Below are positions 11,001-34,293 of a DNA stretch of 45,668 bases, piece by piece. Within the stretch, counting starts at the first letter, position 1. Each line of letters begins with the position of its first letter. The stretch lies in contig JACRPH010000006.1 of assembly GCA_016214025.1 (NCBI GenBank), positions 1 to 45,668 on the forward strand. Direction: 5' to 3'. The notes below the pieces were generated by a model. That model was not told where the DNA came from, ran no database searches, and saw nothing but the letters and a program-made list of their open reading frames with translations. The stretch comes from Candidatus Woesearchaeota archaeon (GTDB lineage Archaea > Nanobdellota > Nanobdellia > Woesearchaeales > GW2011-AR9). Position numbers and translations under genes: made by a program.

Positions 11001-11080
11001 GGCACAAAAATCCAGCCTTTCTTTCCAAGCTGTTCAATAATGTAGTCTTCAACTACTGATTTTTCTGTGAAGCGGGGCAT
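8054..11080 (-). CDS. hsdR: Type I restriction enzyme, R subunit
   Basis: RTDIILYVNGIPLVDIECKNP nuclease motif, WHWQGSGKT, DEGHR, FTGTP, MLLTGFDAP, QAIARTNR. Confidence 0.96.
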   Translation of the reverse strand: MPRFTEKSVVEDYIIEQLGKKGWIFVPAKELDRASFEEPLLLRNLIQKIKEINLVDMSDADINTVINELKFKPSSPEGIKQILQFFKEGIPIKLEKDRTLRKIKLFDHHNIQNNEFIVTRQAVYTVGNKEIRTDIILYVNGIPLVDIECKNPAGFSENWFDAYKQIKSYEQDVPELYKYVQIGVAAEQIAKYFPIIPWQEEVKTSEWKEFEKDSIDSTIELFTPHQLLDIINNFLFYRIESGEATKVLPRYMQYRAVNKVVSRVVNHIKGKEPKDKGLIWHWQGSGKTLEMIFAANKLYRSEVLENPSLFLIIDRQDLERQLYEEFTALDLTLPEIISSVNEMQRMILHGNGKGKRGIFITLIHKFRPEELDSLRKELEKMSEKQETILTRRNVVAFIDEGHRTQYGTLAAQMRSILRNTFFFAFTGTPISKPKLGVDTYEVFSYPPEEKYLDKYFITDSINDGFTVKIAYQARLEKEVHLKKEMLDAFLEIEYDELPEDIREDVKESVKKKINWMKAYLENPERIAKIAENIAEHFKENVNGKFKAMVVAVNREACVNYKKELDKHLPPQYSEIVMSYGLTRKEPQITQWYVKESTAKYGKDYEEIKKDVIEKYKEEELPKILIVTDMLLTGFDAPVLQTMYLDKPLKEHRLLQAIARTNRPYKNVKEAGLIIDYMGILKEFKRAFEIYSKEEINGALFSLDDLRNDFVRILSGLLEMFKDVPKNEYDRKTLLKAIEILTSDDEKSKKFVEEYKHLQKIFELLGPDTIKAEKFSDFQWLTAIYIYYTRMVLREQPQDNRFVNKYFQKTIKFIHKSTKLEEIQKSLPLIEFDKDYFIKLEEHFKTKEEKAANIVFTLNRFILVDKHKNPVSESLTDKVFRLLQLWKEKTKDYEKVYREGIKVIKEFMQLSQRQKELGLNKLEYSLLLVLEDCFSKEEDFTNDIKELSEELKEVTFSGWISQPTAQKNVERTLRKFIRRYVKKYNLSFEDLNKLYIKLIDRVKAYAQEN

Positions 11081-11081
11081 T

Positions 11082-11663
11082 TTATTTTTCAATCACCCAG
11101 TATCTTGTTCTGCCGTCAATAAACCGTTCCATTAACTCTTTGTTTATCTCTTCTATCTCAAAATAATTAGGATCAAAATCCTCACCCAGCCATTCTTTAA
11201 TTAACTCTTTATATTCTGGATGATTCTTATTCCGGCGAACATGAAGAAGTCGGTAATACCCCCCAATCCCCCCGCAATCATCAGGCGGACAGGATAATTT
11301 TCCTTTAATACATACTGGATGAGGAAGCCCCATTTCATTTGGTTCTATTTTTTCTACGATGATCTGATGCTCCCAACAGTCACCAAAATCGTAGGTATAG
11401 TCAAACTTTTGGCTCGGCTTTAATGTACTAATCCTGATTTTTCTTGAATCCATTAACTTATCATCCCAATCAAAATATTTGGGGACTGATAGCCGCTGTC
11501 CATCAACCTGAAAGTCATACAAATGGGAATTCGTCCATCCCATCACTACCTGAAATATTTCATGGAGTTTATGAAATGAGATATTATCTTTTATTTTTAT
11601 TCTTCTCCAGATGGGCGGTTGAGAATCCCGCAAGGTTATTTTTAATTGCATTATGTTTGGCAT
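11082..11663 (-). CDS. Plasmid pRiA4b ORF-3 family protein
   Basis: PPIWRRI, LHEIFQVVMGWTNSHLYDF, YTYDFGDCWEH, CPPDDCGGIGGY. Confidence 0.9.
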   Translation of the reverse strand: MPNIMQLKITLRDSQPPIWRRIKIKDNISFHKLHEIFQVVMGWTNSHLYDFQVDGQRLSVPKYFDWDDKLMDSRKIRISTLKPSQKFDYTYDFGDCWEHQIIVEKIEPNEMGLPHPVCIKGKLSCPPDDCGGIGGYYRLLHVRRNKNHPEYKELIKEWLGEDFDPNYFEIEEINKELMERFIDGRTRYWVIEK

Positions 11664-11764
11664 TATTGATACCCCCCTTTTTTAGCATCTTGAATGAATT
11701 GGTCAATGTCTTTATCCAGCGTTTCTTCAGTTAACTTGTAAGCATACTTTTTGATTATTTTCAT
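11663..11764 (-). CDS. 33-aa small ORF or gene fragment (MKIIKKYAYKLTEETLDKDIDQFIQDAKKGGYQ)
   Basis: Manual translation. It fills the gap exactly, starting 2 nt after the upstream stop, and its TAA overlaps the next ATG (TAATG). Confidence 0.45.
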   Translation of the reverse strand: MKIIKKYAYKLTEETLDKDIDQFIQDAKKGGYQ

Positions 11765-11766
11765 TT

Positions 11767-12420
11767 TTATTTTATAAATTCGCAAATGGAACTTCCATTT
11801 AATTTTTCTATGCTTTGTACAAACTCAATTTCTTTTTTGAGTTCCTCTTTAACTTTCTGGATTTCACTTTTCACTGATCTTAATTCTTTACTCACAGGTT
11901 TGTTTAATGTTCTATCAAGTTCTTTACTCAGTTCATCCAACTTCTCTTTACTCCCTTTTGCGATTATAAACCCAGGACATCTTAACTCATCATTTTCAAT
12001 TCTTGGTTTAAAATATTCTCGCTCTGGCTCAAACAAATAAAATTCAAAATGAGGGTAAACTTCTTTTAACTTGAACCGATCTTTAAATTGGGCAATTAAA
12101 CTATTTAATATTTCTTTTTTGCTATCTTCTAAAGAACGAAGTTTTTTATTAAACTCTATTAGTGTTGGAAAATGATTATTTAAATCCTCAAACAACGATT
12201 TGTTTACTAAAATAGGTTCTAAGTTGTCATTTTCTGACCACGGCTTTAACACTTCCTGTTTTATTCTATTTAAGTGTTCTTTTTTTCTCTCTTCTCCTTC
12301 TTTTCTTCTGAAAATTAAGATGCTTCCATAAACTGCTATAAAAGTCCCAATTATAGTTATCAGTAATTGAATAATTGAATGTGTGATATCGAGAGTATTT
12401 GAAATCGTAATATTAACCAT
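11767..12420 (-). CDS. Hypothetical protein with one N-terminal TM helix and coiled coils
   Basis: IIQLLITIIGTFIAVYGSILIF followed by a basic stretch. ATG at 12420 follows the hsdS stop. Confidence 0.7.
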   Translation of the reverse strand: MVNITISNTLDITHSIIQLLITIIGTFIAVYGSILIFRRKEGEERKKEHLNRIKQEVLKPWSENDNLEPILVNKSLFEDLNNHFPTLIEFNKKLRSLEDSKKEILNSLIAQFKDRFKLKEVYPHFEFYLFEPEREYFKPRIENDELRCPGFIIAKGSKEKLDELSKELDRTLNKPVSKELRSVKSEIQKVKEELKKEIEFVQSIEKLNGSSICEFIK

Positions 12421-12421
12421 T

Positions 12422-13592
12422 TTAGCTCGCCACATTAACTCGTTTCTTACCTGTTAAGAGATCATTCATCAATCCATGTTTTATTTTTTCCAATTTTTGT
12501 TTTTTTGTTTTTTGAAGAGAAAGTTTTTTGTCAAAAAAAAGATTTATCTCAGAAATTTTTATTTGTTCTTGTAGAGGTGGAGTCTTAATTAAAAATTTTT
12601 GTAAGTTTGTTGCATTAATATTTGCCTGTGAGACTGCCCTACTAGCAAGCTTTCTAATCTCTGAATTAAAATGTATCAGGAGATAAGTTAAAAATGATGA
12701 GTAAATACATTCACTTTTTACTCTTAATCTAATTAAGTACGAAGCAAATACACAATCTTTTTCGGATAAAAAAATTCCAGTTCTACCAACTAATTCGTAG
12801 CTATTCGTTCGATTAAATAGAATGTCTCCTGATTTTAGTTTAAAATTATTAAATGTTTTTTCATCCAAATCAATTCGCTTAGCATTCTTTAATATTACTT
12901 CTCCATTTTCTATATTATCCATTTTAACAATAGGATACTTACCAATATCACTTAGCTTAGTAGATAAACCATATTGACACATTTCTAAGACATCGCCAAG
13001 CTTTTTTACTTCCCATACCTCAGGTATCTTTCCAATGTCCGTCTCTTTAAACTCTTTATGTCCTATTCCTTTGGTTAATAATTTCTGCATTACTCCACTT
13101 TTTAACCTTTCAGTCTTCTCAATCTGCCTATCAACACTCTGAATCGCTTCATCAACAGTAGAAAGAACTTCGGCGATGGCTTTTTGTTCCTACATGAGGG
13201 ATACCAGTACCTTTGGTTTGTCCTCTTAAATACCCCTCTTTTGTTTTTAAAACATAAAATAAATAGCTCTGGTCAATATCTCTTTTGAGAGAGAATTTAA
13301 CCATTGTTGAGGATAATATACCTTTTTTACCAATAAAAAATTCACCTGCATTTGATCCGTCCCATAATAAAATTAATTCGCCGGTATCTACAATAACTTC
13401 GTAGCCAGAGACTTTACAGAAAATAGTTTTTCCATTATTTCTTAGATATTCTGTTGATAAATAGGGGAGATAACTATTAATGGGTGATTCACTAGTTACT
13501 CTTGGTTTCTTTCCTTTTGTATAATTCAAAAGCTCATCTATCTCAACAACTTCCCAATCTTCCGGGATTTTTCCTATTTCAGTTTGTTTCAT
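12422..13592 (-). pseudogene. hsdS: Type I RM specificity subunit, split by a frameshifting deletion at ~13190 (real or assembly artefact)
   Basis: Repeats KQTEIGKIPEDWEV / KETDIGKIPEVWEV, two TRDs, C-terminal LMNDLLTGKKRV. GTGIPHV jumps frame to EQKAIAEVL, and the expected ..IPLPPL.. segment is missing. Confidence 0.88.
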
Positions 13593-14594
13593 CTTTTCTG
13601 CCTAACTCGAAGAACTCCTGCAATTTTTGTTGCAACAATTTTCTAGGGATGAGCTTTGTTTTATACTCAGAAATCAATGCTGGGGACATATTTCTCTTTA
13701 ACGCATATTCAACTACTTCTTTGTCCTTACTTTTGCACAAAATTATTCCTCTTTGTCTAATGCTTCAAGGTAAAAGTTCATTTTTCCAAGGTATTCTGGC
13801 TTGAAACCATCTATTTTTAACTCAAAAGCAACCAAGCATCTCAATTCTCTATGATAAAACAAGAGATCAACAAAAAAATCATTATTACCTATTTGCAGCC
13901 TGTATTCTTCACCTACAAAAGCAAAATCTTTGCCGAACTCTAAAACAAACTTTTTAAAATTGTGAATTAGAGAATTTCTTAAGTCCGACTCATCGAATAC
14001 CTCAGGTAAATTAAGAAATTCAAGAACATACGTTTCTTTAAAGTAAGGTAGGCCTTCTTTGTCAGAGTGTGACAACATTGGTGACACTTTTTTACTAATT
14101 ATGGCTCTTTCATAATAGCTACTGTCAATTTGGCGCTCTAACTCTCTTTTAGAATACTTCTCTATTATTGCTAGCCTTAAATAGAATTCCCTCTCTTCGG
14201 AGCTTTTCGATTTTGAGATGATAGCTAAATGATGCGACCAGCTAATTTGTGACAACAGTGGCGACACAATTTGGTTGTTCTTGTACGTATCATAAAACTG
14301 TCGCATCCGATAAAGATTTCTTCGAGTATATCCCTTTAAATCGGGGTGCCTGTTAGCAATATATGCTGCCAGCTTGTCAACCACAAAATCTCCCCATTCA
14401 GCATTTTGAATCTTTGTGCTGATGTACTCTCCAATTTTCCAATAAAGAGTTATAAGCTCATTATTGACAGATTTTAATGCTTTAATTCTGGCTTTTTTGA
14501 TAAAGTCAACTATTTCGATGAAGTGATTTTCAAATTTAATAGTACTAATTTGTCCTATTTCAGTTTGGTTGTGTTTTTTCTTACTGATTGTCAT
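13579..14594 (-). pseudogene. YhcG/DUF1016 PD-(D/E)xK nuclease family protein, frameshifted at ~13748
   Basis: LYWKIGEYI, NLYRMRQFY, ISWSHH, GKDFAFVGEEY, VDLLFYHRELRCLVAFELK. The C-terminus IILCKSKDKEVVEYAL...ETN* continues in another frame to 13579. Confidence 0.85.
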
Positions 14595-14623
14595 AGTAGC
14601 CCTACTGATAGTTTTATTGATAT

Positions 14624-14742
14624 AGTAAGTGACATTAATTTTTATACGTCGTGTCACTTACTTATTACGAGATGACATACTATTTTGTATAGTTGTCATC
14701 AGACAACTCACGAATGAAGTGACTTGAATTATTTATGTCATC
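14624..14742. repeat. Cluster of inverted repeats built on TGACA/TGTCA between hsdM and yhcG
   Basis: AGTAAGTGACA 14624-34 / TGTCACTTACT 14652-62. GATGACATA 14671-79 pairs with TGTCATC 14694-700 or TATGTCATC 14734-42. Confidence 0.65.
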
Positions 14743-14757
14743 GAGTATAGTTCCATT

Positions 14758-16524
14758 TTAACCTATCTCCTTCAAATATCCCTCAATCTTTTTATCCACC
14801 TCTTTTTCTTGATTTTCCAACTCTTTTAGTCCTTCCCATTCTTTCATAATATCAATATCTTCAATTTCATCTTCCGGGTAAACATAAAGAGTAATATTCA
14901 GGTTATAGTCATTTTTCCTAATTTCATCCAACTTAACAATTCTGGAGAAACCTTCTTCTTCCTTCCAGGCATGGTAAGTATCGGATATTTTCTTGGTATT
15001 TTCATCGCTTAACCAGTTTAACTTGCGTACGTCTGGATGCTTTTCAAATTCAGTTGAAGCATTAATGAACAATATTTCATTTTTGTGCTTCTTTTTCTTA
15101 TTGAATATCAAAATTGCGCCAGGTGCTCCTGTATTGTAAAACAATTTCTCAGGTAACAATATTATAGCCTCAATTAAATCACCTTGTAGATTTGCATCTC
15201 CATCAATTACTTTCATTCGCACTGCTCTTTCTTTTCCACCCCTAAACAAACAACCATTATCTATAACAATACCAACTTTTTCTTTAGACGAAGCAAGCAT
15301 ATGCTGAATCCAAGCCAAGTCAGCCGATTGCTTAGGTACAAAACCATAGGCAAATCTTTTCTTCCAGAATTCTCCTTTCTTGAGAACTAATTCATCATAA
15401 CCATCTTGATTCCAGGGAGGATTGGCAATGACAATATCAAACTGCTGAACGTTCTCTCCTTCCTTGAATTTAGGGTATAATAATGTATCGCCATAAGCCA
15501 GTTTAGCATTTCTAATATCATGGATATACATATTCATTCTACCAAAAGCAAGTGTTTTATGGTTTGCTTCTTGCCCATAAAGAAATAATTTATCTGCTTC
15601 TTTCTTCCCTTTTGATTCTTTAACATGTTCATAAGAAATAATCAGCATTCCATTACTGGCACTGGCGGGATCATAAACACTTTGCCCTGGTTTGGGATCA
15701 AGTATTTCGACGAGTAATTTAATAACTTCTCGTGGAGTATAAACTTCTCCTTCCTTGGCTTTATCAGGAGCAAAATATCTCAAAACCCATTCATAAGCAT
15801 CTCCTAAAATATCAGCAGAAACATGATTAAGCTTCTTTTCACTGAATAACTCTACTAACTGCCGAAGAATTTCTGCATTCTCTCTATTAGTCGTGAACTG
15901 AATAAAATCAACATTGTCAAGTACATCTTTTAACTCTTGATTTTTCTCGGCCAGAACCTTCAAAGCTTGAGAAAACTTTTCGGGAAGTTTCGTAACATCT
16001 TTACGAATATTTTCCCATAAGTATTCCATAGGAATAATAAAATCATGGTAAGCGGCATTTCTTGCTTCTTCTTCAGCTTCTATTTCACTGAATTCATCAT
16101 GAATTGCTTCATCATATGCTTTTTCATATTCTGCTTCCCATTTGTCGCTAATCCTCTTATAGAATAATAAAATCAGAATAAACTTATAATCAACTCTAGT
16201 TCTAATTAAATCGGCAGCTTTCTTAAGAATCCCCTCAATATCAGAACGAGATAGTTTTTCAACATCAAAAACACTCTTAATTATCTCCTCTTTACTTTTC
16301 AAACAATAAATACTCTTCCTAGCATCTTCAGGATCTGGCTGAAGCTCAAGCCAACCAGCTTTCCTTAATTCAGAAAGCACAACTGCCACACCTTTAACCT
16401 TATCAACATCACTCAATCGCAAGATACTTTTTGCCTGTTCCATCGTAAATGTAGAGGCATTCAGCTTATCAAAGAGTAATAAATACTTATTCTCTAACCA
16501 CGGTGGAAGTTTTATTTGGACCAT
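14758..16524 (-). CDS. hsdM: Type I RM methyltransferase (m6A) with an extra N-terminal winged-HTH domain
   Basis: ILKKAADLIR, GEVYTPREV, VYDPASASNG, YGQE, ANPPW. The first ~90 aa resemble a wHTH (VLSELRKAGWLELQPDPEDARKSIYCL). Confidence 0.95.
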   Translation of the reverse strand: MVQIKLPPWLENKYLLLFDKLNASTFTMEQAKSILRLSDVDKVKGVAVVLSELRKAGWLELQPDPEDARKSIYCLKSKEEIIKSVFDVEKLSRSDIEGILKKAADLIRTRVDYKFILILLFYKRISDKWEAEYEKAYDEAIHDEFSEIEAEEEARNAAYHDFIIPMEYLWENIRKDVTKLPEKFSQALKVLAEKNQELKDVLDNVDFIQFTTNRENAEILRQLVELFSEKKLNHVSADILGDAYEWVLRYFAPDKAKEGEVYTPREVIKLLVEILDPKPGQSVYDPASASNGMLIISYEHVKESKGKKEADKLFLYGQEANHKTLAFGRMNMYIHDIRNAKLAYGDTLLYPKFKEGENVQQFDIVIANPPWNQDGYDELVLKKGEFWKKRFAYGFVPKQSADLAWIQHMLASSKEKVGIVIDNGCLFRGGKERAVRMKVIDGDANLQGDLIEAIILLPEKLFYNTGAPGAILIFNKKKKHKNEILFINASTEFEKHPDVRKLNWLSDENTKKISDTYHAWKEEEGFSRIVKLDEIRKNDYNLNITLYVYPEDEIEDIDIMKEWEGLKELENQEKEVDKKIEGYLKEIG

Positions 16525-16666
16525 TTTGTAGCTATAAAACACAACTACTATTTAAATGTTACTAATTAAATAAGTGTATTTTGTAAAGTACTTATCTAAT
16601 TTTAATAGCAACCCCTCTATGAAACTAAAAATTCCGTTTGGGTAGAGAAACAGCGATTGCATACGT

Positions 16667-19600
16667 TTATGGGAAAGGATAGGCATTCTTCCGGTGTTTA
16701 CTCGCTTTTTTCTTTCTGCGATGCATTTTCACTAGGACCAACACCAAACCAATAACTATTACCACCTCTAAAACATACTTCCAGGTGATCCATTGGGTAA
16801 TGCTTTTCCAAGAAGAGGTATTCTTGTCAGCTGAGCCTAACGCTTCATTTACAGTTAAAGGGGTTATGCCGATTTTGAATTCTGTAGAAGTATTGGAAGC
16901 ATTAATTGCGTCTAACGCTGATGAAGCCACGCTTTCATTAACTTTTTCTTCTACTGCCACTTTCTGTTCCGGTATCGCTTCATGAATCTTTTGAATGGTA
17001 AGGTTTGCTTTAACTGCAGTGATGTTTATGCTATTTAATTTTGCTTTTATATCATAATAACTGTCATCATCCAGCTCAAATTTCATCTCTTCTCCAATGG
17101 ATAATAATACTTTGTAAACTTTGCTGGTCACATTGAAGCTGGCTGATACCGAAGTCATGCTTTCCATAGTTAGATAATGCTCTTCGTTACTAATAGAAAA
17201 TTTCATCTTGTCGCCTTTGCTTAAAGTGTTGGTGTATCCGGTAGCTAATTGGGCATCATTGATTACATACGTTGTTCCTCCAGTTCCGCCTCCGCCACCC
17301 CCGCCGCCTCCGCCGGAGCTGCTAGGTGAGCTGGGGCAGGCACTGCACGAGCCGCCGCAATCTGTTCCTGCTTCATTTCCATTTTGGATGCTATCTGAAC
17401 ATGAAGTAACGCTGAAATTATAAGTTGAAGAATTGGTGTGCGTAGTAGTGAAATTGTCAGTATAATTTAAAGTGAAATTGTACGAGCCAACCGTTAAATC
17501 ACTTATGCTCCAATTACAGTTCCAGGTGGTATTGGTTGTGGTGCAGCTTCCGTTGAAGAGAGTTCCATTGAAATCCAGAGTAAAGTTAGATATTCCAGAA
17601 TAGTCGTGAGTGGTGCTATTTATACTTAAAGTGCTTCCATCTTGCTGCAGGTGTAATTCGGTGTCGTAAGTTGGAGATGAAATAGTGGGTGGTTTAGTGT
17701 CATTAATAATTACAGTTATGTTGGTTAAATTTGAACTGTAACCATCAGAGACGTTTAGAATAACGATGAAGCTTCCTGTTGAATTAAATGAGTGAGTTGT
17801 GTTTTGTTCGGTAACTAAAGAAGTATTATCACTGAAGTTCCAGTAGTAAGTTAAAGTATCGTTGTCTAAATCAGTAGCAGTAGCATTAAAAGAGGTGGAG
17901 TTGCCTACTTCAATTACAGAATTGTTAATCGGAGCAGTAATGTTCAGGGCAAATGGAATTCTATTTTGTACCGTAAAATTGTAAGTGGCAGATGTGTTGA
18001 TGTTTCCAGCCAAATCCGCGGCATTAAACTTGTACGCGATATTTCTCTGATTAGTTAGATTGGATGTGCCAGTTAAAGTGAAGTTAAAAGTGATATTATT
18101 TTCATTATTCATAGAATAGTTAGTCCAGTTAGTGGAGAAGTTTGATTCAAAATAAACTGCGGAGGTGTTTAGGGCATAATTGTCGGTTACGTTTATTCTA
18201 AAAGTGATGGAATCATTGTTGTAAACGGTGCTAGGGTGGAGGCTGAGGTTTATTATGCTGGCAGCAGTTTTGTCTACGGTAAATATTACTGATGAGGTAG
18301 CAGAATTGCCTAAAGTATCATTGACGAATACAGTTAGGGTGTAGTTTCCATCGGAGAAGGTGGAGTTGGATAAATTAACTAAATCCGTCCAAGTAAAGCT
18401 GGTGGCGAGTATCGAATTATTAGTGTTAGTTTGTAGAGTTGTATTGGTAGAGTTGATAATAGAATAATTGGAAAAAGATAATTGTAAATTGGTGAGAGAG
18501 ACATTTAGATTTAAGGCTTGTCGATAGTAAGAAAGGTTAGTCGGAGTGTAAAAAGTAATATTCGGTGCAGTCTGGTCTACGACGATTAATCTGGTTTCGC
18601 TTACTCCAAACGTTCCGGCTGAATCATTCCCATATACTCTGTAAGTGTAATTAGTTGTGGTTAACCCAGTCATGTTGTAATAGAAGCTAGTAGCATTGCT
18701 GGAATTCATGGTAAAATTAGCCGGTGTTCCATTATTCCATTCCAGTAACGCTGTAGAAAGATTTACGTCAGAAGTTATGTTTATCAAAGTGTAAGTTGCA
18801 GTGATAGTGGTAGCATTGGCTGGGCTGGAAGAGGTGAAGTTGATGAATGGCTGGATGGCGGCAAGGATATCAATTCTAGGGAAAGTAATCCCATTTCGTG
18901 TATCGTTTATTCTTACCCCCGTAATTTTCAATTTGTTTTCTATTTGCTGTGGAGTGATGTTAATATTATATGCTGCTTTCCAGTACTGTTTCAGCAATGC
19001 TGCAGCTCCGGCTACGTGGGGGGCAGCCATGGATGTGCCGCCTTCAGTGCCATAAGTATTACTTAGAACTGTTGAGTATATCTGCGCACCAGGAGCAAGC
19101 AAATCTAATATATTTCCAGAGTTAGTAAAACATGAGATTTGATCTGCTGCAGTTGAACCATCTGTGCAAGCACTCCAAGCAGCAATTCCAACATTTGCAT
19201 CATATACTGATCCAACCGAAGTAACATTTGAAGCACATGCTGGTGAGCCTATCCCTGAACTATTTGCGGCATTTCCAGCAGCAACATCAACAAAAATTCC
19301 TTGGCTCGCAGCATAATTAGTGGCATTAGCTAGTGGACGATCATCACAGTAAGAAGTAGAGATAAATTCGTAGGGACACCCCTGTGTTGGATGGCATTCT
19401 CCTAAGCTCAGAGTTATTACAGAAATGTTAAACAAAGTTTTATTACTTACGCACCAATCTATTCCCGCAATAGCATCATCAGTACTACCTGAACCATTAT
19501 TTGCAAACACTTTCAAAGCCACAATTTTTGCTCCGGGTGCGACTCCTCGATAAGTATTATTTTCAGAAGCAATAATTCCTGCTACATGTGTACCATGACT

Positions 19601-20272
19601 GTTTACATCCATCGGATTCGAATCATCATTACCAAAGTCATATCCTCCAATCACCTTACTACAGCTTCCATTTAAAAAACTAGTATTAGTACATCCTCCT
19701 AAAGCTGGATGGGTATAATCTACTCCCGTATCGATAACACAAACGGTTTGTCCAGTTCCATTAATGCTAGTCCCATTTACAGAAATATTCCAAACCTGGT
19801 TTGCTTTAATTAACGGCACGGATTGAATAAGATTTATTTTTATTGGTTTTACTGGTCGAATTTTTTCTATCAAGTCTGATTTTACTAACTTCTCTAACCC
19901 TTTCTTCGTTACTCTTCCCGAAAATCCATTAATAATAGAATAACGATGTTTTAAATCAATATCATAATCCTCCGCAGAAGCAATTCCTAAACCACCAACT
20001 TTATCTCGTTTTCTCACTCTTAACTCACCTAAAACGTCATCCTGCACTTCGCTTATCATCGCCTTCCTTCGGGAGAATTCATCTGTTGCAGAAGCAATTC
20101 CTAATCTTTTCTCTGGAAGTGGCTGGTCTTTCAATACAATGATTACAGAAACCTCATCTTGGGAATTTAATGCATCTAGAACTTCTTGGTCGATGGTTGC
20201 AGCAAAAGCAAACGTAGTTAAAACTAAGAATACCACTAATAATACGACTATCAAATACCCTCTTTTATTCAT
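16667..20272 (-). CDS. S8 subtilisin-like surface protease (paralogue of 3788-7456) with signal peptide, propeptide, Ig/PKD repeats and TM anchor
   Basis: IDTGVDYTHP, NSHGTHVAG, GGTSMAAPHVAG, YYWNFSD, SCSDSIQNGNEAGTDCGGSC, poly-Gly linker, C-terminal TM and basic tail. Confidence 0.93.
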   Translation of the reverse strand: MNKRGYLIVVLLVVFLVLTTFAFAATIDQEVLDALNSQDEVSVIIVLKDQPLPEKRLGIASATDEFSRRKAMISEVQDDVLGELRVRKRDKVGGLGIASAEDYDIDLKHRYSIINGFSGRVTKKGLEKLVKSDLIEKIRPVKPIKINLIQSVPLIKANQVWNISVNGTSINGTGQTVCVIDTGVDYTHPALGGCTNTSFLNGSCSKVIGGYDFGNDDSNPMDVNSHGTHVAGIIASENNTYRGVAPGAKIVALKVFANNGSGSTDDAIAGIDWCVSNKTLFNISVITLSLGECHPTQGCPYEFISTSYCDDRPLANATNYAASQGIFVDVAAGNAANSSGIGSPACASNVTSVGSVYDANVGIAAWSACTDGSTAADQISCFTNSGNILDLLAPGAQIYSTVLSNTYGTEGGTSMAAPHVAGAAALLKQYWKAAYNINITPQQIENKLKITGVRINDTRNGITFPRIDILAAIQPFINFTSSSPANATTITATYTLINITSDVNLSTALLEWNNGTPANFTMNSSNATSFYYNMTGLTTTNYTYRVYGNDSAGTFGVSETRLIVVDQTAPNITFYTPTNLSYYRQALNLNVSLTNLQLSFSNYSIINSTNTTLQTNTNNSILATSFTWTDLVNLSNSTFSDGNYTLTVFVNDTLGNSATSSVIFTVDKTAASIINLSLHPSTVYNNDSITFRINVTDNYALNTSAVYFESNFSTNWTNYSMNNENNITFNFTLTGTSNLTNQRNIAYKFNAADLAGNINTSATYNFTVQNRIPFALNITAPINNSVIEVGNSTSFNATATDLDNDTLTYYWNFSDNTSLVTEQNTTHSFNSTGSFIVILNVSDGYSSNLTNITVIINDTKPPTISSPTYDTELHLQQDGSTLSINSTTHDYSGISNFTLDFNGTLFNGSCTTTNTTWNCNWSISDLTVGSYNFTLNYTDNFTTTHTNSSTYNFSVTSCSDSIQNGNEAGTDCGGSCSACPSSPSSSGGGGGGGGGGTGGTTYVINDAQLATGYTNTLSKGDKMKFSISNEEHYLTMESMTSVSASFNVTSKVYKVLLSIGEEMKFELDDDSYYDIKAKLNSINITAVKANLTIQKIHEAIPEQKVAVEEKVNESVASSALDAINASNTSTEFKIGITPLTVNEALGSADKNTSSWKSITQWITWKYVLEVVIVIGLVLVLVKMHRRKKKASKHRKNAYPFP

Positions 20273-24330: not shown

Positions 24331-24470
24331 AAATCCCTAGAAAAAGAGGTGATTTAAATACTTTACTACTCTAAAATAGTTCCAACCGTAAAGCTTTTAA
24401 ATAGGCCCATAGCTTAAAAATTACTTTTCCTCATTAAGTTTATTAACCACTTCTATATCCTCTTTAAATT

Positions 24471-25610
24471 ATGGCATTACATCGCGAGATAATCGTCTTG
24501 GGAGACATTGAAATGGGTGGAGGCACGCTTACTGATGATTTCATAGGCGATAACGCTCTCTCAAAATTGCTCTTAGAACTGAACCGGCGTCCGCATCCAT
24601 TAGATTTAATCTTAAATGGAGACACGTTTGACTTTCTGAAATGCCCGTATTCAAAAGGCGGGAAATTAGCTTACACCCGGCATATTACCGCAGAAGTTTC
24701 TTTGAGCAAGCTGGACTTAATGTACTCTGCGCATAAGAAAGTATTTGATGCACTAACTAAATTTATCCGTTTACCTCAGCACAACTTATTTTTTGTATTC
24801 GGGAACCATGATTTAGATTTAGTTTTTCCTCAAGTGCAAGAAAAAATTAGAAAAATATTGTGGGCAAAGTCCAACGTTCATTTCATAATTCGATATAATG
24901 CCGATGGAGTATACGTTGAGCACGGGATGCAGTATGATTACCTGAATAAAATTGATTTCCAGAAGGTGTTTTTGAAACATAAAGGAAAAGAGCTGCTTAA
25001 TCTGTCCTGGGTTTCATTTGGATTAATCGGAAAGATGCTTCCGTTGAAAGAAGAGCATCCGTTCTTAGAGAGGCTTATGGACCGTCCGCGGTTATTTACC
25101 ATAAACAAATTCCTGAGAAAGAGGATCGCGTGGAAAGTTACCGAATACTTCTTTAAGAGCATGGTATATTATCCGTGGAGATATATCACTGACCCCACTT
25201 ATGCTTTTCCCCGGGGATTATTCCGTGAATTCCTGCGCCGGATGAAACACACACATTGGGAAGTTGATACCATTGTGAGCGTGTTTAAAAGGAACAAACG
25301 CCGCAGCTTGCATAAGAATAAAATTTATGTTTTGGGGCACGTGCATCACCATTATATGGAGGAAAAAGAAGGCAGGGTAATTATTCATTCCGGAAGTTGG
25401 AGAGATGAGTATGATTTGGATAAGAATAGTCATTTAGTCCCCCGAGTGAAGAAATATGTGCAAGTCTTAATTGGAGATGGCAGATGTGAATATCAGGTTA
25501 TTTCTTATCCCCTTAAGCGAAGCAAGTTTAAGCTGGAAGATGCGCTGAAAAATGAGAAAAAGTGCTTGAAGACGGCGGCGAAGGAGGAGGGGTATGATTT
25601 GACTTTGTGA
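24471..25610 (+). CDS. Calcineurin-like metallophosphoesterase
   Basis: LGDIEMG, LNGDTFD, FGNHD, VEHG, LGHVH, SGSW. Confidence 0.88.
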   Translation: MALHREIIVLGDIEMGGGTLTDDFIGDNALSKLLLELNRRPHPLDLILNGDTFDFLKCPYSKGGKLAYTRHITAEVSLSKLDLMYSAHKKVFDALTKFIRLPQHNLFFVFGNHDLDLVFPQVQEKIRKILWAKSNVHFIIRYNADGVYVEHGMQYDYLNKIDFQKVFLKHKGKELLNLSWVSFGLIGKMLPLKEEHPFLERLMDRPRLFTINKFLRKRIAWKVTEYFFKSMVYYPWRYITDPTYAFPRGLFREFLRRMKHTHWEVDTIVSVFKRNKRRSLHKNKIYVLGHVHHHYMEEKEGRVIIHSGSWRDEYDLDKNSHLVPRVKKYVQVLIGDGRCEYQVISYPLKRSKFKLEDALKNEKKCLKTAAKEEGYDLTL

Positions 25611-25718
25611 TTTTCACCACTCCTTTACACTCAACAACCTTTAAATAGAAGTTTGGTTCTCAGCTTCATATTCTAGTTATCGGGGTGGGGGAATATCTTA
25701 GAACAAAAATTAAACCAA

Positions 25719-26219
25719 GTGAGTAACCGCTCGTCAATCAAAGACGCGGTGACGGCAGTAGCTAAGCTGGATTATACTGTGCTGAAGGAGATTTCTGCCA
25801 ATGATAATTTTGTTGATGAGGGAGCAGATGATGAAGCCAGTGAAATTGAGAAGTTAACTTCTGATGATGAGCTGGTTGATTATGCTTTACTTCATCAACA
25901 ACCCCCAGTTAATTATGCTTTGAATTTAGATTATCTTTCCGAGTTAGCTGGAGCAAGGTCTTCTTCAGTGACGTATGAAGATGATGAGAAAGAGAAGAAA
26001 GTGGAGGATGAACCAGAACCCATAATTACTGCCCAAGAGGCAGGTGAGATAATCCATCAACTCCAAGCTAATAGAATTTTTGGGGGTGGAAAGGTCGTAG
26101 ACTACAAGAAGAGGGAGTCGTTTCTTTATTATATTACTTTTAATCCAGCGATATTTAGACTACAGTGCGTTTCAAGTCAGTTTTATACCGATGACATAGA
26201 TTATTCGAGGTTTGTTTAG
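25719..26219 (+). CDS. Acidic hypothetical protein
   Basis: 166-aa ORF with GTG start and an upstream TTTAAATA promoter-like element. Confidence 0.6.
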   Translation: MSNRSSIKDAVTAVAKLDYTVLKEISANDNFVDEGADDEASEIEKLTSDDELVDYALLHQQPPVNYALNLDYLSELAGARSSSVTYEDDEKEKKVEDEPEPIITAQEAGEIIHQLQANRIFGGGKVVDYKKRESFLYYITFNPAIFRLQCVSSQFYTDDIDYSRFV

Positions 26220-26225
26220 ACTTAG

Positions 26226-26774
26226 CTAAAGGTTCTTGCTTTCTTCATGTAACTCGTTCCATAGTTGTTTTCCGGTAGCAGTTTTGAAATATTTATGATA
26301 AGTCTTAAGAAACTCAGAGAGAATATCTTTATTTAGCTGTTTTGAATAAACTCTTGCTTGCAATAAAGTATCTAACTCATCAGCTTCCCTAGCTACAATG
26401 GACTCTTTTGTCTTTTGTTCTTGGTATTCGCTGATTAAATTACTAAATTCTCGAGCAATTTTAGCGGGTAGATTTTTCATCAACTTTTCCATAGACTTTT
26501 TTTCAATTTCTTCTTTATTAACATAACTTTTGTCTGCGGGAGTGAGATCATCTATGTACGCCATAATTAAGTCATGTATAAGCAACATCTTTATTACTTT
26601 ATTAGAATCAACCTTTTCCATCTCTGATAATAGCCACCCTAGAGAAGCCGCTCCAAAAGAATGACTGGCAATGGTGTCTTTGATTCCCGATACTCCTTTC
26701 AACATCCATCCCTTTCTCTCTAAATGCTTAATCTTATTTATGGGTTCAAAGAGGTTTAATATGTCATTTTTCAT
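26226..26774 (-). CDS. HD-domain hydrolase (HDDC2/YfbR-like 5'-deoxynucleotidase family)
   Basis: KHLERKGW, DTIASHSF, LLIHDL, EADELD. Confidence 0.85.
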   Translation of the reverse strand: MKNDILNLFEPINKIKHLERKGWMLKGVSGIKDTIASHSFGAASLGWLLSEMEKVDSNKVIKMLLIHDLIMAYIDDLTPADKSYVNKEEIEKKSMEKLMKNLPAKIAREFSNLISEYQEQKTKESIVAREADELDTLLQARVYSKQLNKDILSEFLKTYHKYFKTATGKQLWNELHEESKNL

Positions 26775-27328
26775 GTTGTCTTTTTTCGGATAGATTTAAG
26801 CTCGCCCAGTATTCCCACTAGTTGTTCATCTTTGAGATATTTCTCGACGTTTTCCCAGAACTCATCTAATGACCCGCCTGCAACTTCTTCATACTCTAAT
26901 GTTTGAATTGCCATCTCTAATTTATCGATCTCTTTAAGAAATTTAGCTTCTTGTGAACGGCGATTAATGTAATCATCTATAATCACAAAGTAATCTTCTT
27001 CTGAACTTAACCCGGAGATGATCTCTTTAGCTGATTTAAGTTCTTTCTGATGTTTACTCTTCAGCTTTTCTAGATCTGATATTTTCCCGTGTTCCCACAC
27101 AAGGTCCGTCGTTATTGACTCAGCAATGTCGTGTATCAATGCCATCTTAAGCAGATAAAACCGATCTAAATCTCTTCCCTCAGAGAGAGTCATAGCCATT
27201 ACTGCGACTCTGAATGAATGTTCAGCAACGCTTTCGGGTGAGCTTATACCCTTTAATAGCCAACCTGTTCTCTTAACTTTCTTTAACTTCCCCACTTCCA
27301 ATAAAAATTTAGTTATAGGACTTATCAT
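26771..27328 (-). CDS. HD-domain hydrolase (HDDC2/YfbR-like), tandem paralogue
   Basis: LKKVKRTGW, ESVAEHSFR, MALIHDIAES, IDKLE. ATGA overlap with the next gene. Confidence 0.88.
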   Translation of the reverse strand: MISPITKFLLEVGKLKKVKRTGWLLKGISSPESVAEHSFRVAVMAMTLSEGRDLDRFYLLKMALIHDIAESITTDLVWEHGKISDLEKLKSKHQKELKSAKEIISGLSSEEDYFVIIDDYINRRSQEAKFLKEIDKLEMAIQTLEYEEVAGGSLDEFWENVEKYLKDEQLVGILGELKSIRKKTT

Positions 27329-27399
27329 TTTTTCTCTTATCTTTTAGAGATTGGATTAACTCTCTTAATTTATCTTCTTTTATAGGGTATTTGGCATTT

Positions 27400-28359
27400 T
27401 CAAAATGACAAACACAGTTTAGTTATTCTTATTAGGTATTCGTGAATTACTTTCATATTCTCCAGTGCCTTTCCCACCAAGAGGTCATCATTTACACGAT
27501 GAATGTTGTCTATTCTTTCCATTATCTCTTTCTCTTCTTTAACTAATTTACTCATCTGGTTTCGATTCTTCTGGTGATGGTTGTTCATCATTTCCACGTA
27601 AATTCTCTCAGTAGTAGAGTATATTTGCTCTAAAGATTTAACCGTCTTTTTCTTCTCATCCAAGTACACCAAATCTTGGGCGATGGACTTCAAATGATGA
27701 GAAATATTTTCTAAAAAGAAGTTTATCTTAGACGTTAACACAATCTCCAAGTAATTTAACTCAAACATTTTAGCAATATTCGGGTCAGTAAGAGCTTTTT
27801 TGGTTACTTTCATTGCCAGCAGGTTAAGCTTATTTATCTGCTCATTTAAGTTGTTTATCTCCTCGTAATCCTTTGCTCTGAGCCCTTTCTGAAAGAATTT
27901 TTTAATTTCTACCAACATGGCTCTGAGGATAATATCTTCTTTCTTCAGCACCATACTTGCAGAGGTATCTTTGTAGTCAAAGAAGTTTCTAGCGATGATA
28001 TGTTGTGGAGTATGTTCAATAACATCTAACGCAATCAAGCCCTGAATAATCTCTGTTATCATTACGGATTTGTCTTTTATTTCTTTTCCAACTAATCTGA
28101 TATTTTTGAAGTCGTCAATATAGGCAGAGATTATCTCATTACGCAAGTCGTTGGTATCTTTTCCATCGATATTGATGCAGGTTTCCTCTACTTTTGGGCT
28201 TTCTTTAAGCTCTTGTGGGCTTATCAGCAGATGCCCATTAGTTCCATAACTTAGGCTTATGGTATCTCCCGCTGCAAGTTTATTTTCTCTGACCCACTCT
28301 ATAGGCAAAGAGACTACAAAAGAGGTATTCCCTGATTTTACCAGAGTTCTGAACGCCAT
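27400..28359 (-). CDS. Archaeal AbrB-PhoU type regulator (phosphate-uptake regulator family)
   Basis: N-terminal RTLVKSGNTSFVVSLPIEWV...GD, IISAYIDDF, helical PhoU-like C-terminus. Confidence 0.82.
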   Translation of the reverse strand: MAFRTLVKSGNTSFVVSLPIEWVRENKLAAGDTISLSYGTNGHLLISPQELKESPKVEETCINIDGKDTNDLRNEIISAYIDDFKNIRLVGKEIKDKSVMITEIIQGLIALDVIEHTPQHIIARNFFDYKDTSASMVLKKEDIILRAMLVEIKKFFQKGLRAKDYEEINNLNEQINKLNLLAMKVTKKALTDPNIAKMFELNYLEIVLTSKINFFLENISHHLKSIAQDLVYLDEKKKTVKSLEQIYSTTERIYVEMMNNHHQKNRNQMSKLVKEEKEIMERIDNIHRVNDDLLVGKALENMKVIHEYLIRITKLCLSF

Positions 28360-28444
28360 AATGGTTTTAGAAGTAAGTACTTTATATATTTGGTGTATAG
28401 TATGTCAATAAAGTATATATCTGGGGGGGGCTTTTTGTATTATT

Positions 28445-28789
28445 ATGCCAGTAGAAATAACGCTGGAGCTCCCTCACGCACATAGGGGTGATTTTAGAGA
28501 ATTCCTGCACCGACACCGGCGTGTGGATTCGTTCCAAGAGGTGGATGGATGTTTTATGGTGAGAGTTATTCCTCAAGATAGTCCGGAATTTCATGCGTTT
28601 GTGCGAGGAATAAAAAAAACGTTCCAGGTTAGTGTGGTTAAAGAAACTCCTCTTTGCCAGGGAACGTGCAGAAATGGAACAAACTGCTTTAATCGGGATA
28701 AATATGAGGGTTACTGCTTTCATCATCGAAAGGTTTCCGAAGGTGTGGGAGAAAGGGATATTAATCCCGCTCATCAGGTGATGGAATAA
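28445..28789 (+). CDS. Small protein with a C-terminal Cys/His zinc-finger-like motif
   Basis: CQGTCRNGTNCFNRDKYEGYCFHH (DUF5763-like spacing). First gene of the putative operon, downstream of TATA-like sequence. Confidence 0.65.
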   Translation: MPVEITLELPHAHRGDFREFLHRHRRVDSFQEVDGCFMVRVIPQDSPEFHAFVRGIKKTFQVSVVKETPLCQGTCRNGTNCFNRDKYEGYCFHHRKVSEGVGERDINPAHQVME

Positions 28790-28809
28790 AATAAGGAGGT
28801 AAAGAAAAA

Positions 28810-29016
28810 ATGGAAACACTTGACAGAAAGTTAGGTCTAACAGAAAGTGCAACAAACATAGGAGACTTAAAAACTGAACAAGCACTGGGTAGGTACGCTT
28901 ATTGGAGTACCGAGAGTAGATACGACAAATTAGGCGAAAATTATAGGGGTAGTTCATGTGGTCATTGTGGTGGCAGTTGCCATGGAGATGGTTCTTGTGG
29001 AGGAGATGGTGACTGA
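28810..29016 (+). CDS. Putative RiPP precursor peptide (Cys/Gly/Ser-rich C-terminal core)
   Basis: Strong AGGAGGT SD. 68 aa ending GSSCGHCGGSCHGDGSCGGDGD. Lies 8 nt upstream of a radical SAM ORF. Confidence 0.75.
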   Translation: METLDRKLGLTESATNIGDLKTEQALGRYAYWSTESRYDKLGENYRGSSCGHCGGSCHGDGSCGGDGD

Positions 29017-29024
29017 TTAAACAA

Positions 29025-29597
29025 ATGACTGGGAATATCTCTAAGCGTAGAAGCTTTAGTCTCCAATGGCACATTACGGCCGAATGTGACCAGAATTGTG
29101 CCCATTGTTACGTTACCGACGACAGAACATACCAGCAAGAACTAGAAAACCCCCTTACTCTTGATGGATGTACAAAAGTAATAGATAGCCATATTAAATT
29201 TGCTGGAAAACTGGGCGCAACACCAAATCTTGTGCTAACTGGTGGAGATCCGCTTCTACGCATAGAGATATTCCATTTAGCATATTGGGATTTCTTTGAG
29301 GAGACGTATGGAATTAAAGTTGATGACCTCTTTGATGAGCTCTATAAGAGTCATACCAATAGTGAACAATTCAATTTTTGGCAAATATCTGAATTGCTTC
29401 CAGAATATTATCTTAAGTTGCCCGTGTTTGCTAAATTTAAGTGGAATTTATTTGACCGGGAAACAGGATATCCCTGGATGAAAAAGATGAAAGTGATAGC
29501 AGACCCTTTATGGAAGCGTAAGCCTAGTTTTAGTACATTTATTGTTAGTTTGCATGAGAAATGTGGGTGTCCTTTAAGATTGATTAAGTTCAAGTGA
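29025..29597 (+). CDS. Radical SAM peptide-maturase-like N-terminus fused to an unrelated-looking C-terminus (truncated/chimeric)
   Basis: FSLQWHITAECDQNCAHCY (CxxxCxxC) and LTGGDPLLR. Similarity appears to stop at ~29261. Only 190 aa, with no SPASM cysteines. Confidence 0.75.
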   Translation: MTGNISKRRSFSLQWHITAECDQNCAHCYVTDDRTYQQELENPLTLDGCTKVIDSHIKFAGKLGATPNLVLTGGDPLLRIEIFHLAYWDFFEETYGIKVDDLFDELYKSHTNSEQFNFWQISELLPEYYLKLPVFAKFKWNLFDRETGYPWMKKMKVIADPLWKRKPSFSTFIVSLHEKCGCPLRLIKFK

Positions 29598-29600
29598 ATT

Positions 29601-30740
29601 CTAACAACACTTCTCTTTCTTTTCTTCTTCTGTTGGTTTGGGTGGTATTTCTATCCGAATGTGCATATGGTCGCCGTGGCTTCTGTCGGGATAAAAAGCT
29701 TTACCGTATTTCTGCCATTCTTCTTTCCCATATTTTTCTGTTACGTACTTCTTAAGCGGATAAACATACCGCTGGCTCCAGAAAATGTATTCTATCTCTG
29801 AGCTGGGAGCATCTTGCAATGACTTAACAAATCGCCAATTGGCTTCCAGAGTTTCTAGGGTGAGCATCTTCATTCCTAATCCCCTAAATCCGCTGTGGTA
29901 TTCACCTTTCTCATACCAATAATGTCCTACATCTATGTCTATTCCATAGCGGTGGCTGATGTGCGGAGGCAGTCTTCCTCCCCTTGCGCCACTTATATCA
30001 CCAACTGTAAGTACAGGGTAATTTCCGGAATAGGAATAATACACATTAGTAGCACATGCCGCCAAAGCCACGCTGTTGATTAATTCCACCGCTCCAAATT
30101 TGGCCCAATGTTTTCGGGTGCGCATATAATCCGTATCCGGCATCTCTGCCCACTTTAGATGTTTAAAGTATCGCGATTGGCTGAATGGATTGGGGACTTC
30201 AGTTGGATTTAGTGAATAGCAGATAGCAGTTTTATCTACTGCCTCTTCTACAGCTAGCTCTAATCCTGACAAATCAGGAAAGCCCAACTGCGGCAGTTCT
30301 AATTTAGAAGCAAGTTCATGCAGTTTGTGTTGGGTTAATAATCCTAACGTGGCTGCTTCTACCAAATCATCTGGTGCCGGTTTGCAGGCGCTGGCAGCAG
30401 CAGTTCTTTCGCCAAGCTTTACTGAAGGCTGATAATTGGTATAATAAGCAGTAACACACATACCAGTAATCATACCCATAATTGCGACGGTAGTAAAAGA
30501 AAAGGCGGTTTTTGCCCACCCTGGAGACAAAAAGGATGGAAATGAGAAAGATGTTTTGGTCTTAGGGGCTGGTGTAGGCGGTGGATCATTTTCTTTTAGT
30601 TCCATTTCCCACCAGCGATCTTCATACAATCTCTTCAACTTATCATATTCCTCTCGAATACGCATTACGATCTCACTTTTAGATATTCTTTCAGCTAGTG
30701 AGAGGGGTTCTTGTTTGTAGTTGAGGTTTATCCTAATCAT
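29601..30740 (-). CDS. Membrane-anchored MepA-like (penicillin-insensitive murein endopeptidase, LAS family) zinc peptidase
   Basis: VGDISGARGGRLPPHISHRYGIDID (H-x6-D) and HGDHMHIRI (HxH). TM helix near aa 80-100. Confidence 0.82.
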   Translation of the reverse strand: MIRINLNYKQEPLSLAERISKSEIVMRIREEYDKLKRLYEDRWWEMELKENDPPPTPAPKTKTSFSFPSFLSPGWAKTAFSFTTVAIMGMITGMCVTAYYTNYQPSVKLGERTAAASACKPAPDDLVEAATLGLLTQHKLHELASKLELPQLGFPDLSGLELAVEEAVDKTAICYSLNPTEVPNPFSQSRYFKHLKWAEMPDTDYMRTRKHWAKFGAVELINSVALAACATNVYYSYSGNYPVLTVGDISGARGGRLPPHISHRYGIDIDVGHYWYEKGEYHSGFRGLGMKMLTLETLEANWRFVKSLQDAPSSEIEYIFWSQRYVYPLKKYVTEKYGKEEWQKYGKAFYPDRSHGDHMHIRIEIPPKPTEEEKKEKCC

Positions 30741-31030
30741 CGCCCAGAAAAACTCTTTCGTGAAGAAAAAGTTCCCTAAAAATTAGTTTTTACTGTTCTT
30801 TTATAAGTTTTTTGCATTTGCGGTATATGAATGTGTTGATAAACTGGATTGAGTATAAAGCTGACACCATATTGGTTTGATTTTGTTTTTCAAGAAGCCT
30901 CACTGTTTTTATCATGTTTGAAAGAGTTGCTATAATTCCTAATGCTTCTTTAAAACTTAACGCTAGTGTAATATCTATATCCCCCACTTACTAAAAACAT
31001 ATAAAGCCTCAGTAAACAATTTTAATCAAT

Positions 31031-33002: not shown

Positions 33003-34293
33003 TCACATCAACCCTTTGGGCATTTTCCCGCTCATCTTCCGCATCATCTTGGAGATATCTTTCTCGCTTTTGAACATCTTGACCATCTTCTTGGCCAGGC
33101 GATACTGCTTGAGTAATTCTCGGATATCGGTAACTTTAACTCCTGAACCGGCTGAAATGCGTTCAATCCTATCCGCATTAATGAGCTCTGGCTCTTCTAA
33201 TCACTTCCAGAGCATCTTTAGGCAGTTTTAATGAGCCCATGCCCGGAATCATCTCCAGAATCTTGCCGAAGGAGCCCATCTTCTTCATGGATTTCATCTG
33301 CTGGTACAGATCTAATAAATTGAAATCTCCTTTGAGCAGTTTCTTCTCCAGGTCTTTGGCATCTTCTTCGGTAATAACTTCCCGGGCTTTTTCCAGCAGT
33401 GATTCAATATCTCCCATGCCGATTAATTTGCCCACGAATCTCTGCGGATGGAATAATTCCAGCTCATCAATCTTCTCTCCTACACCAATGAAAGTAATAG
33501 GGGCATTAGTTACTGAGCATGCAGATAAAGCTCCGCCGCCTTTAGCGGTGCCTTCTAATTTAGTTACGATGACTCCAGTTACGTTACAAGTATCGTGAAA
33601 AGCCTGGGCCTGTTTTTGCGCCGCTTGTCCGATATCAGCTGAGATAACTAACAAGCGCTCGTCAGGCTGCGCCGCTTTATTGAGCAGATTTAATTCTTCG
33701 ATAAGTTCTGATGACAACGCATCTCTTCCTGCCGTGTCAATTATCACTACATCATATTCAGAAAGCTTGGATTGGAATGAAGAGTAAATCTTTAACGGAT
33801 CTTTGCTTCCTTTAACTCCCAGAAAATCTACGCCAACAGCCTTGGCTAACTGCTCCAGCTGTTCATAGGCTGCCGGTCTCCACGTATCAGTCTGCATTAC
33901 TGCTACTTTATATCCCCTTTTGCGGTAGAACTTGGCTAATTTTCCGACACTGGTTGTTTTTCCCGATCCGAAGAGCCCCACCAGCATTATCTGTGTCGGC
34001 TTTTTCCCTACTTTGACTTCATGAGCTTCTTTCCCCAGAAAGTTGGTTAATTCTTCGTAAACGATAGTTATTAATTGCTCTCTTTTGGTTATGCCTGGAG
34101 GAGCAGATTCTTTAGCCCGCTCTTTGATTTTGGTGGTTAAGTTGAATACTAACTGGACATTGGTATCGGATTGAAGCAAGGCACGTTGAATATCTTTAAC
34201 TAATTCATTGATGAGCTTATCATCTACAAATACAGCTTTGGTTATTTTCTGCAGGGTGTTCTTCAATGATTCACCGAGTTTTTCCAGTACCAT
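33003..34293 (-). CDS. srp54: Signal recognition particle protein SRP54, frameshifted at ~33201 by an apparent deletion
   Basis: GLFGSGKTT, DTWRPAA, DTAGR, TKLEGTAKGGGALS. The M domain resumes out of frame as LEEPELINADRIERISAGSG...MPKGLM*. Confidence 0.93.

Follow-up and report, generated by a model that had tools for sequence, protein, structure and literature searches.

MepA is described in the accessible part of PMC6403190 as a Zn-dependent D-Ala-mDAP endopeptidase. Wall hydrolases of archaea have also been published, and the idea itself is not new: the accessible portion of Strock et al. 2025 (PMC12352652) reports that 175 of 3,706 archaeal genomes encode modular wall hydrolases, with Nanoarchaeota prominent, and states that archaeal peptidoglycan hydrolases kill bacteria. 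Murein transglycosylases of Woesearchaeota are reported in the accessible parts of PMC8204110 (Castelle 2021), PMC9723730 (Vigneron 2022) and PMC10936187, where bacterial hosts or prey are suggested for these archaea. Our literature search found no paper describing an archaeal M74/MepA protein or an archaeal M74 clade, and the accessible part of a 2026 preprint on archaeal bacteriocins does not mention M74; several of the M74 proteins considered below have already been auto-named by NCBI.

Here we describe an M74/MepA-family gene at positions 29601..30740 (minus strand) of a window of 45,668 nt, which is contig JACRPH010000006.1 (GCA_016214025.1) of a Candidatus Woesearchaeota archaeon and to which all coordinates refer unless another contig is named. 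The genome, denoted G000, has 1.43 Mb and is 97% complete. The gene encodes a protein of 379 aa, denoted P0001.

A zinc peptidase of the M74/MepA family

By Pfam, profile and fold searches, the ORF is confirmed as a real gene for a zinc peptidase of the M74/MepA family. In the Pfam scan, Peptidase_M74 (PF03411) reached 33.8 bits (cut-off 25 bits; E 3.5e-8) and was the sole family detected, with no cell-wall-binding domain. A profile of 125 homologues of P0001 matched E. coli MepA (1tzp) at E 2.3e-28. When the protein alone was searched with phmmer against PDB sequences, only weak matches to pneumococcal VldE were obtained (E 0.02); profile and fold searches both point to MepA. With the NCBI MepA equivalog NF006947, P0001 scores 33.1 bits, far under the 272-bit cut-off; by this measure it is not a MepA orthologue, although it appears to work like MepA. 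No paralogue was found among the 2302 six-frame ORFs of the genome.

The earlier note, made from the letters alone, had named a MepA-type enzyme with intact H-x6-D and HxH zinc ligands, and had proposed to compare an AlphaFold model with MepA by Foldseek. The Pfam score and the fold bear out this identity, and the comparison recovered the LAS/MepA fold. The model has a mean pLDDT of 77.8, with values mostly above 90 in the catalytic domain (residues 176-366, 29643..30215, minus strand), and its best Foldseek match is MepA 1tzp (E 1.7e-7). VIA-align placed 164 residues on the same structure with Z 14.9 and an rmsd of 3.1 A, followed by Hedgehog (Z 8.3) and VanX (Z 6.1). Identity to MepA in the structural matches is 15-17%, and LAS folds include non-wall proteins, e.g. 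Hedgehog; both points count against a firm reading of a wall substrate.

Both zinc-ligand motifs, H263-x6-D270 and H358-x-H360, are intact and aligned to MepA. The full first motif, H260-x2-H263-x6-D270 (29931..29963, minus strand), aligns with MepA H110, H113 and D120 and is invariant in 125 of 125 alignment rows; the second, H355-x2-H358-x-H360 (29661..29678, minus strand), aligns with MepA H206, H209 and H211. Equivalents of the first three residues are retained in all 36 archaeal M74 domains and those of the last three in 35 of the 36, the remaining domain being truncated where its contig ends. If the roles are those we presume for MepA, H263, D270 and H360 would serve as Zn ligands, with H358/H355 activating the water that hydrolyses a D-Ala-diamino-acid cross-link. 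Asp352 of P0001 occupies the position of MepA W203, which we take to be a substrate-binding residue, and hence the specificity of P0001 may differ from that of MepA; in our literature search, no paper on MepA mutants bearing on W203 was found. At the C-terminus, a Cys-Cys pair (29604..29609, minus strand) is conserved in G000, G001, G002, G004, P0002, P0004-P0006 and P0008. It is kept in the P0001 subclade as well as in G002 and P0008, although the tails otherwise differ.

The segments of the N-terminal half are likewise encoded on the minus strand. Residues 1-75 (30516..30740) form a charged extension that is predicted to be cytoplasmic, with a helix modelled at 23-49. The extension is limited to the closest homologues (P0002-P0006 and those in G001 and G004), and an Atlas search with residues 1-178 gave no usable match. 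Its dN/dS is 0.07-0.52 against G004 and G001, and in codons 1-22 the synonymous rate is low (pS 0.15-0.22 vs about 0.6), so that conservation of these codons may partly act at the DNA or RNA level. A single hydrophobic helix follows (residues 76-100, 30441..30515), which would serve as a signal anchor or else as a cleavable signal with V96-T97-A98 at its end, and then a helical linker or stalk modelled at low confidence (residues 101-175, 30216..30440; pLDDT mostly 43-59, rising towards 175). The hydrophobic peak at residues 78-98 has a Kyte-Doolittle value of 1.6 in a window of 19, borderline for a TM helix; AlphaFold gives a helix at 74-102 with pLDDT about 83, and the K+R counts flanking the hydrophobic helix are 3 vs 2. 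Most stand-alone M74 relatives have a plain signal-like segment right at the N-terminus; the helix of P0001 is therefore probably an equivalent export signal, and the protein is likely exported. From the topology in the earlier note, a cytoplasmic N-terminus, one TM helix and an external catalytic domain, we keep the one helix and the likely export, but permanent tethering, as opposed to release, is uncertain, given the modest hydrophobicity of the helix and the possible signal-peptidase site V96-T97-A98 that we read by eye at its end. Two M74 homologues, P0024 and P0025, have a long N-terminal helical region and then an internal twin-arginine-like RRxF before the catalytic domain.

Archaeal inheritance of the gene and its rearranged surroundings

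The M74 family is bacterial, as are all the clusters that neighbour P0001 in the Atlas, and Logan contigs are interrupted by a short repeat located immediately upstream of the M74 gene, as would be expected if bacterial DNA had been mis-assembled or mis-binned into an archaeal genome. However, the GC content of the segment resembles that of its flanks, and one 16-kb contig of run X2, possibly the source sample, spans 25000-30928 with no differences. An archaeal-type EF-1alpha above the TIGR00483 cut-off is encoded on the same contig, orthologues with 76-80% identity adjoin dph5 in congeners, and M74 of congener G003 (P0022 = MFA6462100.1) and several other close homologues are recorded as Ca. 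Woesearchaeota. With the archaeal domains also forming one clade, we rejected a chimeric contig on congener synteny and phylogeny and regard it as scarcely credible; the assignment of the gene to an archaeon, as originally proposed, holds.

The clade was obtained from an IQ-TREE tree of 93 of 183 domains, in which 90 unlabelled rows were omitted and from which 3 short rows and 21 duplicates had been removed beforehand. The 36 domains from archaeal genomes are all contained in a single clade, which has 53 rows including 17 unlabelled ones (support 95/80); within it, 29 rows from the woesearchaeal family of G000 lie in a clade of 43 (support 95/89), and 22 stand-alone family rows in a clade of 33 (support 95/93). 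A phylogeny against homologues from predatory bacteria had been suggested as a check, and it separated the archaeal clade but resolved neither its sister group nor a bacterial donor that could be named, the backbone being open and most outgroup rows being without a taxon name. We read the M74 domain as one of long archaeal inheritance within one archaeal clade.

Homologues are present in 5 of the 6 other genomes of the genus and in 28 of the 114 genomes of the family; 86 of the 114 gave no match, and the gene accordingly appears to be dispensable in the family. M74 is rare beyond the family in the genomes sampled: an order-level search found it in 4 of 301 genomes by Pfam and in 7 of 401 by the alignment profile, and in a class-level sample it was found in 2 of 301 genomes, both from the same family as G000. 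A pattern scan of genome contigs for the M74 locus returned 2 close loci. For the catalytic domain dN/dS is 0.06 against both G004 and G001, and this domain is under strong purifying selection.

The earlier note had pointed out that the stop of the M74 gene is 3 nt from that of a radical SAM (rSAM)-like ORF, and had suggested that the enzyme and the RiPP-like peptide loci form a joint antibacterial toolkit. The spacing of the two convergent stops is correct (29597 and 29601), and contigs from 4 of 4 runs, all of one study, show the same junction and also bridge the rSAM breakpoint; the spacing and the junction would both suit one co-selected antibacterial locus. The rSAM homology is real for about 80 codons, but the gene (29025..29597, plus strand) is broken. 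DNA homology to the rSAM gene of G004 ends at about 29266, the fragment is without most of the barrel and the SPASM domain, and its unrelated tail of 110 codons (29266-29594) matches only G000 itself among the 114 family genomes and has no Pfam match. The intact G004 orthologue (355 aa, with SPASM) lies on a contig different from that of the M74 gene of G004, and DNA similar to the Cys/Gly-rich precursor-like peptide of the cassette (28810..29016, plus strand) is found 5' of this intact rSAM (G004:C17). Moreover, convergent genes are not one operon, and the adjacency occurs in none of the other family loci compared and in none of the five congeners (G001, G002, G003, G004, G005), where the M74 gene adjoins dph5 and/or a metallophosphoesterase gene in 5 of 5 cases. 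The flank in G004 matches 24412-26000 and then 29602-30832 of the G000 contig, and the 3.6 kb between 26000 and 29602, with two HD genes, a regulator, the precursor-like peptide and the rSAM gene, is particular to G000 in this comparison. With the adjacency not conserved and the maturase truncated, the RiPP linkage is largely refuted, and a co-selected locus is very improbable. We consider both genes of the cassette to be outside the M74 system, the cassette to be broken and its position beside the M74 gene to be an incidental result of rearrangement, and the genome-wide set of wall enzymes is a better context for P0001.

Several other features of the contig were recorded. Upstream of the M74 gene, assembly contigs branch at two short sequences (30829-30855 and 30899-30941), possibly associated with rearrangement, and contig C7 of G000 has an exact copy, 27 nt long, of the first. 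Where the contig ends (43325-45667), YcaO and SagB-like dehydrogenase genes form another RiPP-like cluster, of the azole kind. An SRP54 ORF at 33178-34293 (minus strand) ends at 371 aa within the signal-binding domain, is below full-length cut-offs and is possibly frameshifted or truncated. A type I restriction-modification island of lower GC (3788-20272; HsdR, two HsdS pieces, YhcG and HsdM) lies between two large S8/PKD proteases.

Wall-active enzymes and the candidate substrate

Two SLT lytic transglycosylase genes are present in G000, both with the catalytic Glu motif and both unlinked to the M74 gene. One encodes 272 aa (C29:13139-13957), and the other a 788-aa fusion of polysaccharide deacetylase, SGNH hydrolase and SLT (C8:11098-13464, minus strand), the SGNH-to-SLT stretch of which matches in G001, G004 and G005. 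According to the accessible part of 10.1101/2021.09.23.461501, O-acetyl removal by the bacterial SGNH-type Ape1 is a prerequisite for transglycosylase cleavage. By analogy, the fusion may have the same O-acetyl role, and it is possibly an exported, one-chain 'de-protect and cut' peptidoglycan enzyme. The genome further encodes two LysM proteins. At 97% completeness, it gave no match for M23, Amidase_3, NlpC/P60, M15_4 or PG_binding_1, which counts against the account favoured below, and none for a Mur ligase (Mur_ligase_M), Ala_racemase_N or AnmK. As no Mur ligase was detected, remodelling of its own murein would not be a function of P0001. In the family, SLT was found in 60 of 114 genomes, namely in 21 of the 28 that have M74 and in 39 of the 86 that do not; as the genomes are kin, this comparison is descriptive only.

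Relatives of P0001 are combined with other wall enzymes. A scan of 14 long archaeal M74 proteins showed a further wall-enzyme domain in 3 of them (Amidase_3 in G369, Amidase_2 in G442 and M14 in G441), and an unlabelled protein inside the family clade, P0031, is an M74-SLT fusion. M74 terminates anchored proteins in a pilin-like gene array adjoining an RPA-like gene in G369, G417, G355 and G204, 'pilin-like' being our reading of the N-termini; the pilin-like array of G000, which also adjoins an RPA-like gene (C2:40206-46310), contains no M74. In G021, M74 stands at the end of a 1989-aa surface protein whose gene array shares synteny with the C8/C56 array of G000, in which the SLT fusion lies.

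The catalytic modules of this surface-protein array beside enolase (G000:C56:1-4447 and C8:13439-17469; G021) vary by genome, with the SLT fusion in G000, and M74 on the giant protein together with GDSL and a weak Hydrolase_2 match in G021. In other families, the late genes of the pilin-like arrays encode M74, Amidase_3, SLT, NAGPA or metallophosphoesterase domains.

Given that G000 also has two SLT genes and that M74 is fused with amidases and a carboxypeptidase in relatives, bacterial peptidoglycan is the likely substrate of P0001, and the bacterial-wall target suggested in the earlier note is retained at that strength. We consider it quite probable that P0001 is exported and cleaves bacterial cross-links in a Zn-dependent manner. 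The helix at 76-100 would send the catalytic domain outside, where it would be anchored or released, and the enzyme would act with the unlinked glycan cutters, i.e. the 272-aa SLT and the deacetylase-SGNH-SLT fusion. Combined, these enzymes could breach the wall of a bacterial host or prey, so that the archaeon attaches to it and takes up nutrients. That the exported enzyme cuts peptide cross-links of bacterial peptidoglycan upon contact between archaeon and bacterium is the account we favour, with moderate confidence, and we infer that live bacteria would be attacked. Against it count the low identity to MepA, the absence of a cell-wall-binding domain and the dispensability of the gene in the family; moreover, a short tether would presumably be unable to cross a Gram-negative outer membrane, and the accessible part of PMC8204110 treats bacterial hosts or prey of DPANN archaea as unresolved.

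The same enzyme evidence would also suit a scavenger, in which P0001 cuts dead bacterial walls or fragments, and the peptides and sugars feed a heterotrophic archaeon while live cells are unharmed. P0001 is without a binding domain or long stalk, its signal may be cleaved, and the contig around it also encodes two large S8 proteases and an S49 peptidase. However, the two families tested for recycling of wall fragments, AnmK and alanine racemase, were not found in G000, and other Woesearchaeales place M74 on anchored surface proteins in the pilin-like array, which fits contact better than bulk digestion; scavenging is rather unlikely in our judgement. The MepA fold might instead have been repurposed for a non-peptidoglycan substrate, e.g. 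the envelope of an archaeal host or surface proteins of the archaeon itself. To our knowledge, the known DPANN hosts are archaea, and the low identity to MepA, the replacement of W203 by Asp and the long branch to the P0001 subclade would agree with such a change, but M74 of this clade has repeatedly been fused with amidases, M14 and SLT, and the SLTs encoded in G000 keep their catalytic motifs; both observations point to peptidoglycan, and we regard repurposing as improbable.

Beyond the action of a single enzyme upon contact, we tentatively entertain, as a possible but not the expected case, that the family consists of contact parasites or predators of bacteria with an old, archaeon-specific wall-opening kit. 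Equally tentatively, this kit would combine M74 as the cutter of cross-links with lytic transglycosylases and with a deacetylase fused to an O-acetyl-esterase for stripping protective groups from the wall, the catalytic modules having been swapped onto conserved surface and pilin-like scaffolds. If true, this would be the first lineage of archaea to live on bacteria as hosts, and M74 would serve both as a marker gene and as an assayable enzyme.

Comparison with described systems

P0001 resembles E. coli MepA (M74, PF03411, PDB 1TZP/1U10) in the LAS fold and in all six active-site His/Asp residues. It differs in the low identity, the missed equivalog cut-off and the exchange of W203 for Asp, in adding the 75-residue N-terminal extension, the helix and the stalk, and in that its organism is without a detected Mur ligase. 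Among bacterial proteins, its nearest Atlas structural neighbours are mostly clusters of Myxococcota, and two tree neighbours have the cluster names Bdellovibrionales and Sandaracinaceae; the M74 proteins of Myxococcota, Bdellovibrionota and related bacteria, which are often LysM-fused, nevertheless form clades separate from the archaeal one, and P0001 has no LysM.

With the hydrolases of Strock et al. (Woldo/Danwoldo, M23 with PG-binding; PMC12352652), P0001 would share the character of an archaeon-encoded, exported peptidase for bacterial walls. As far as its accessible portion goes, that survey kept only proteins with catalytic and wall-binding parts, and P0001, being without a binding domain, is excluded by this; among 12 of its supplementary files, M74 occurred only in the domain list S10, and the archaeal hit table, probably S2, may list an archaeal M74. 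P0001 is moreover M74 and not M23, and is spread through one archaeal family and not patchily on plasmids as in the accessible account (PMC12352652). The notion used there of an archaeon without peptidoglycan synthesis agrees with G000, in which EF-1alpha is archaeal and neither Mur_ligase_M nor alanine racemase was matched.

The published case for bacterial hosts or prey of DPANN archaea rests mainly on transglycosylases that cut glycan. To this, a single archaeal clade of cross-link-cutting M74, strongly selected, present in about a quarter of the family genomes and repeatedly fused to wall enzymes, would add a complementary activity. As P0001 is a small single-domain protein, it is directly assayable, and the kind of cross-link that it prefers would point to the bacterial partner. 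The large murein-like lytic transglycosylases of Woesearchaeota and Pacearchaeota, as described in the accessible parts of PMC8204110, PMC9723730 and PMC10936187, share with the present case the lineage and the suggestion of a host or prey, and G000 has two SLT genes of its own. Those enzymes cut the glycan strand, whereas P0001 would cut the peptide cross-link, which is the complementary bond.
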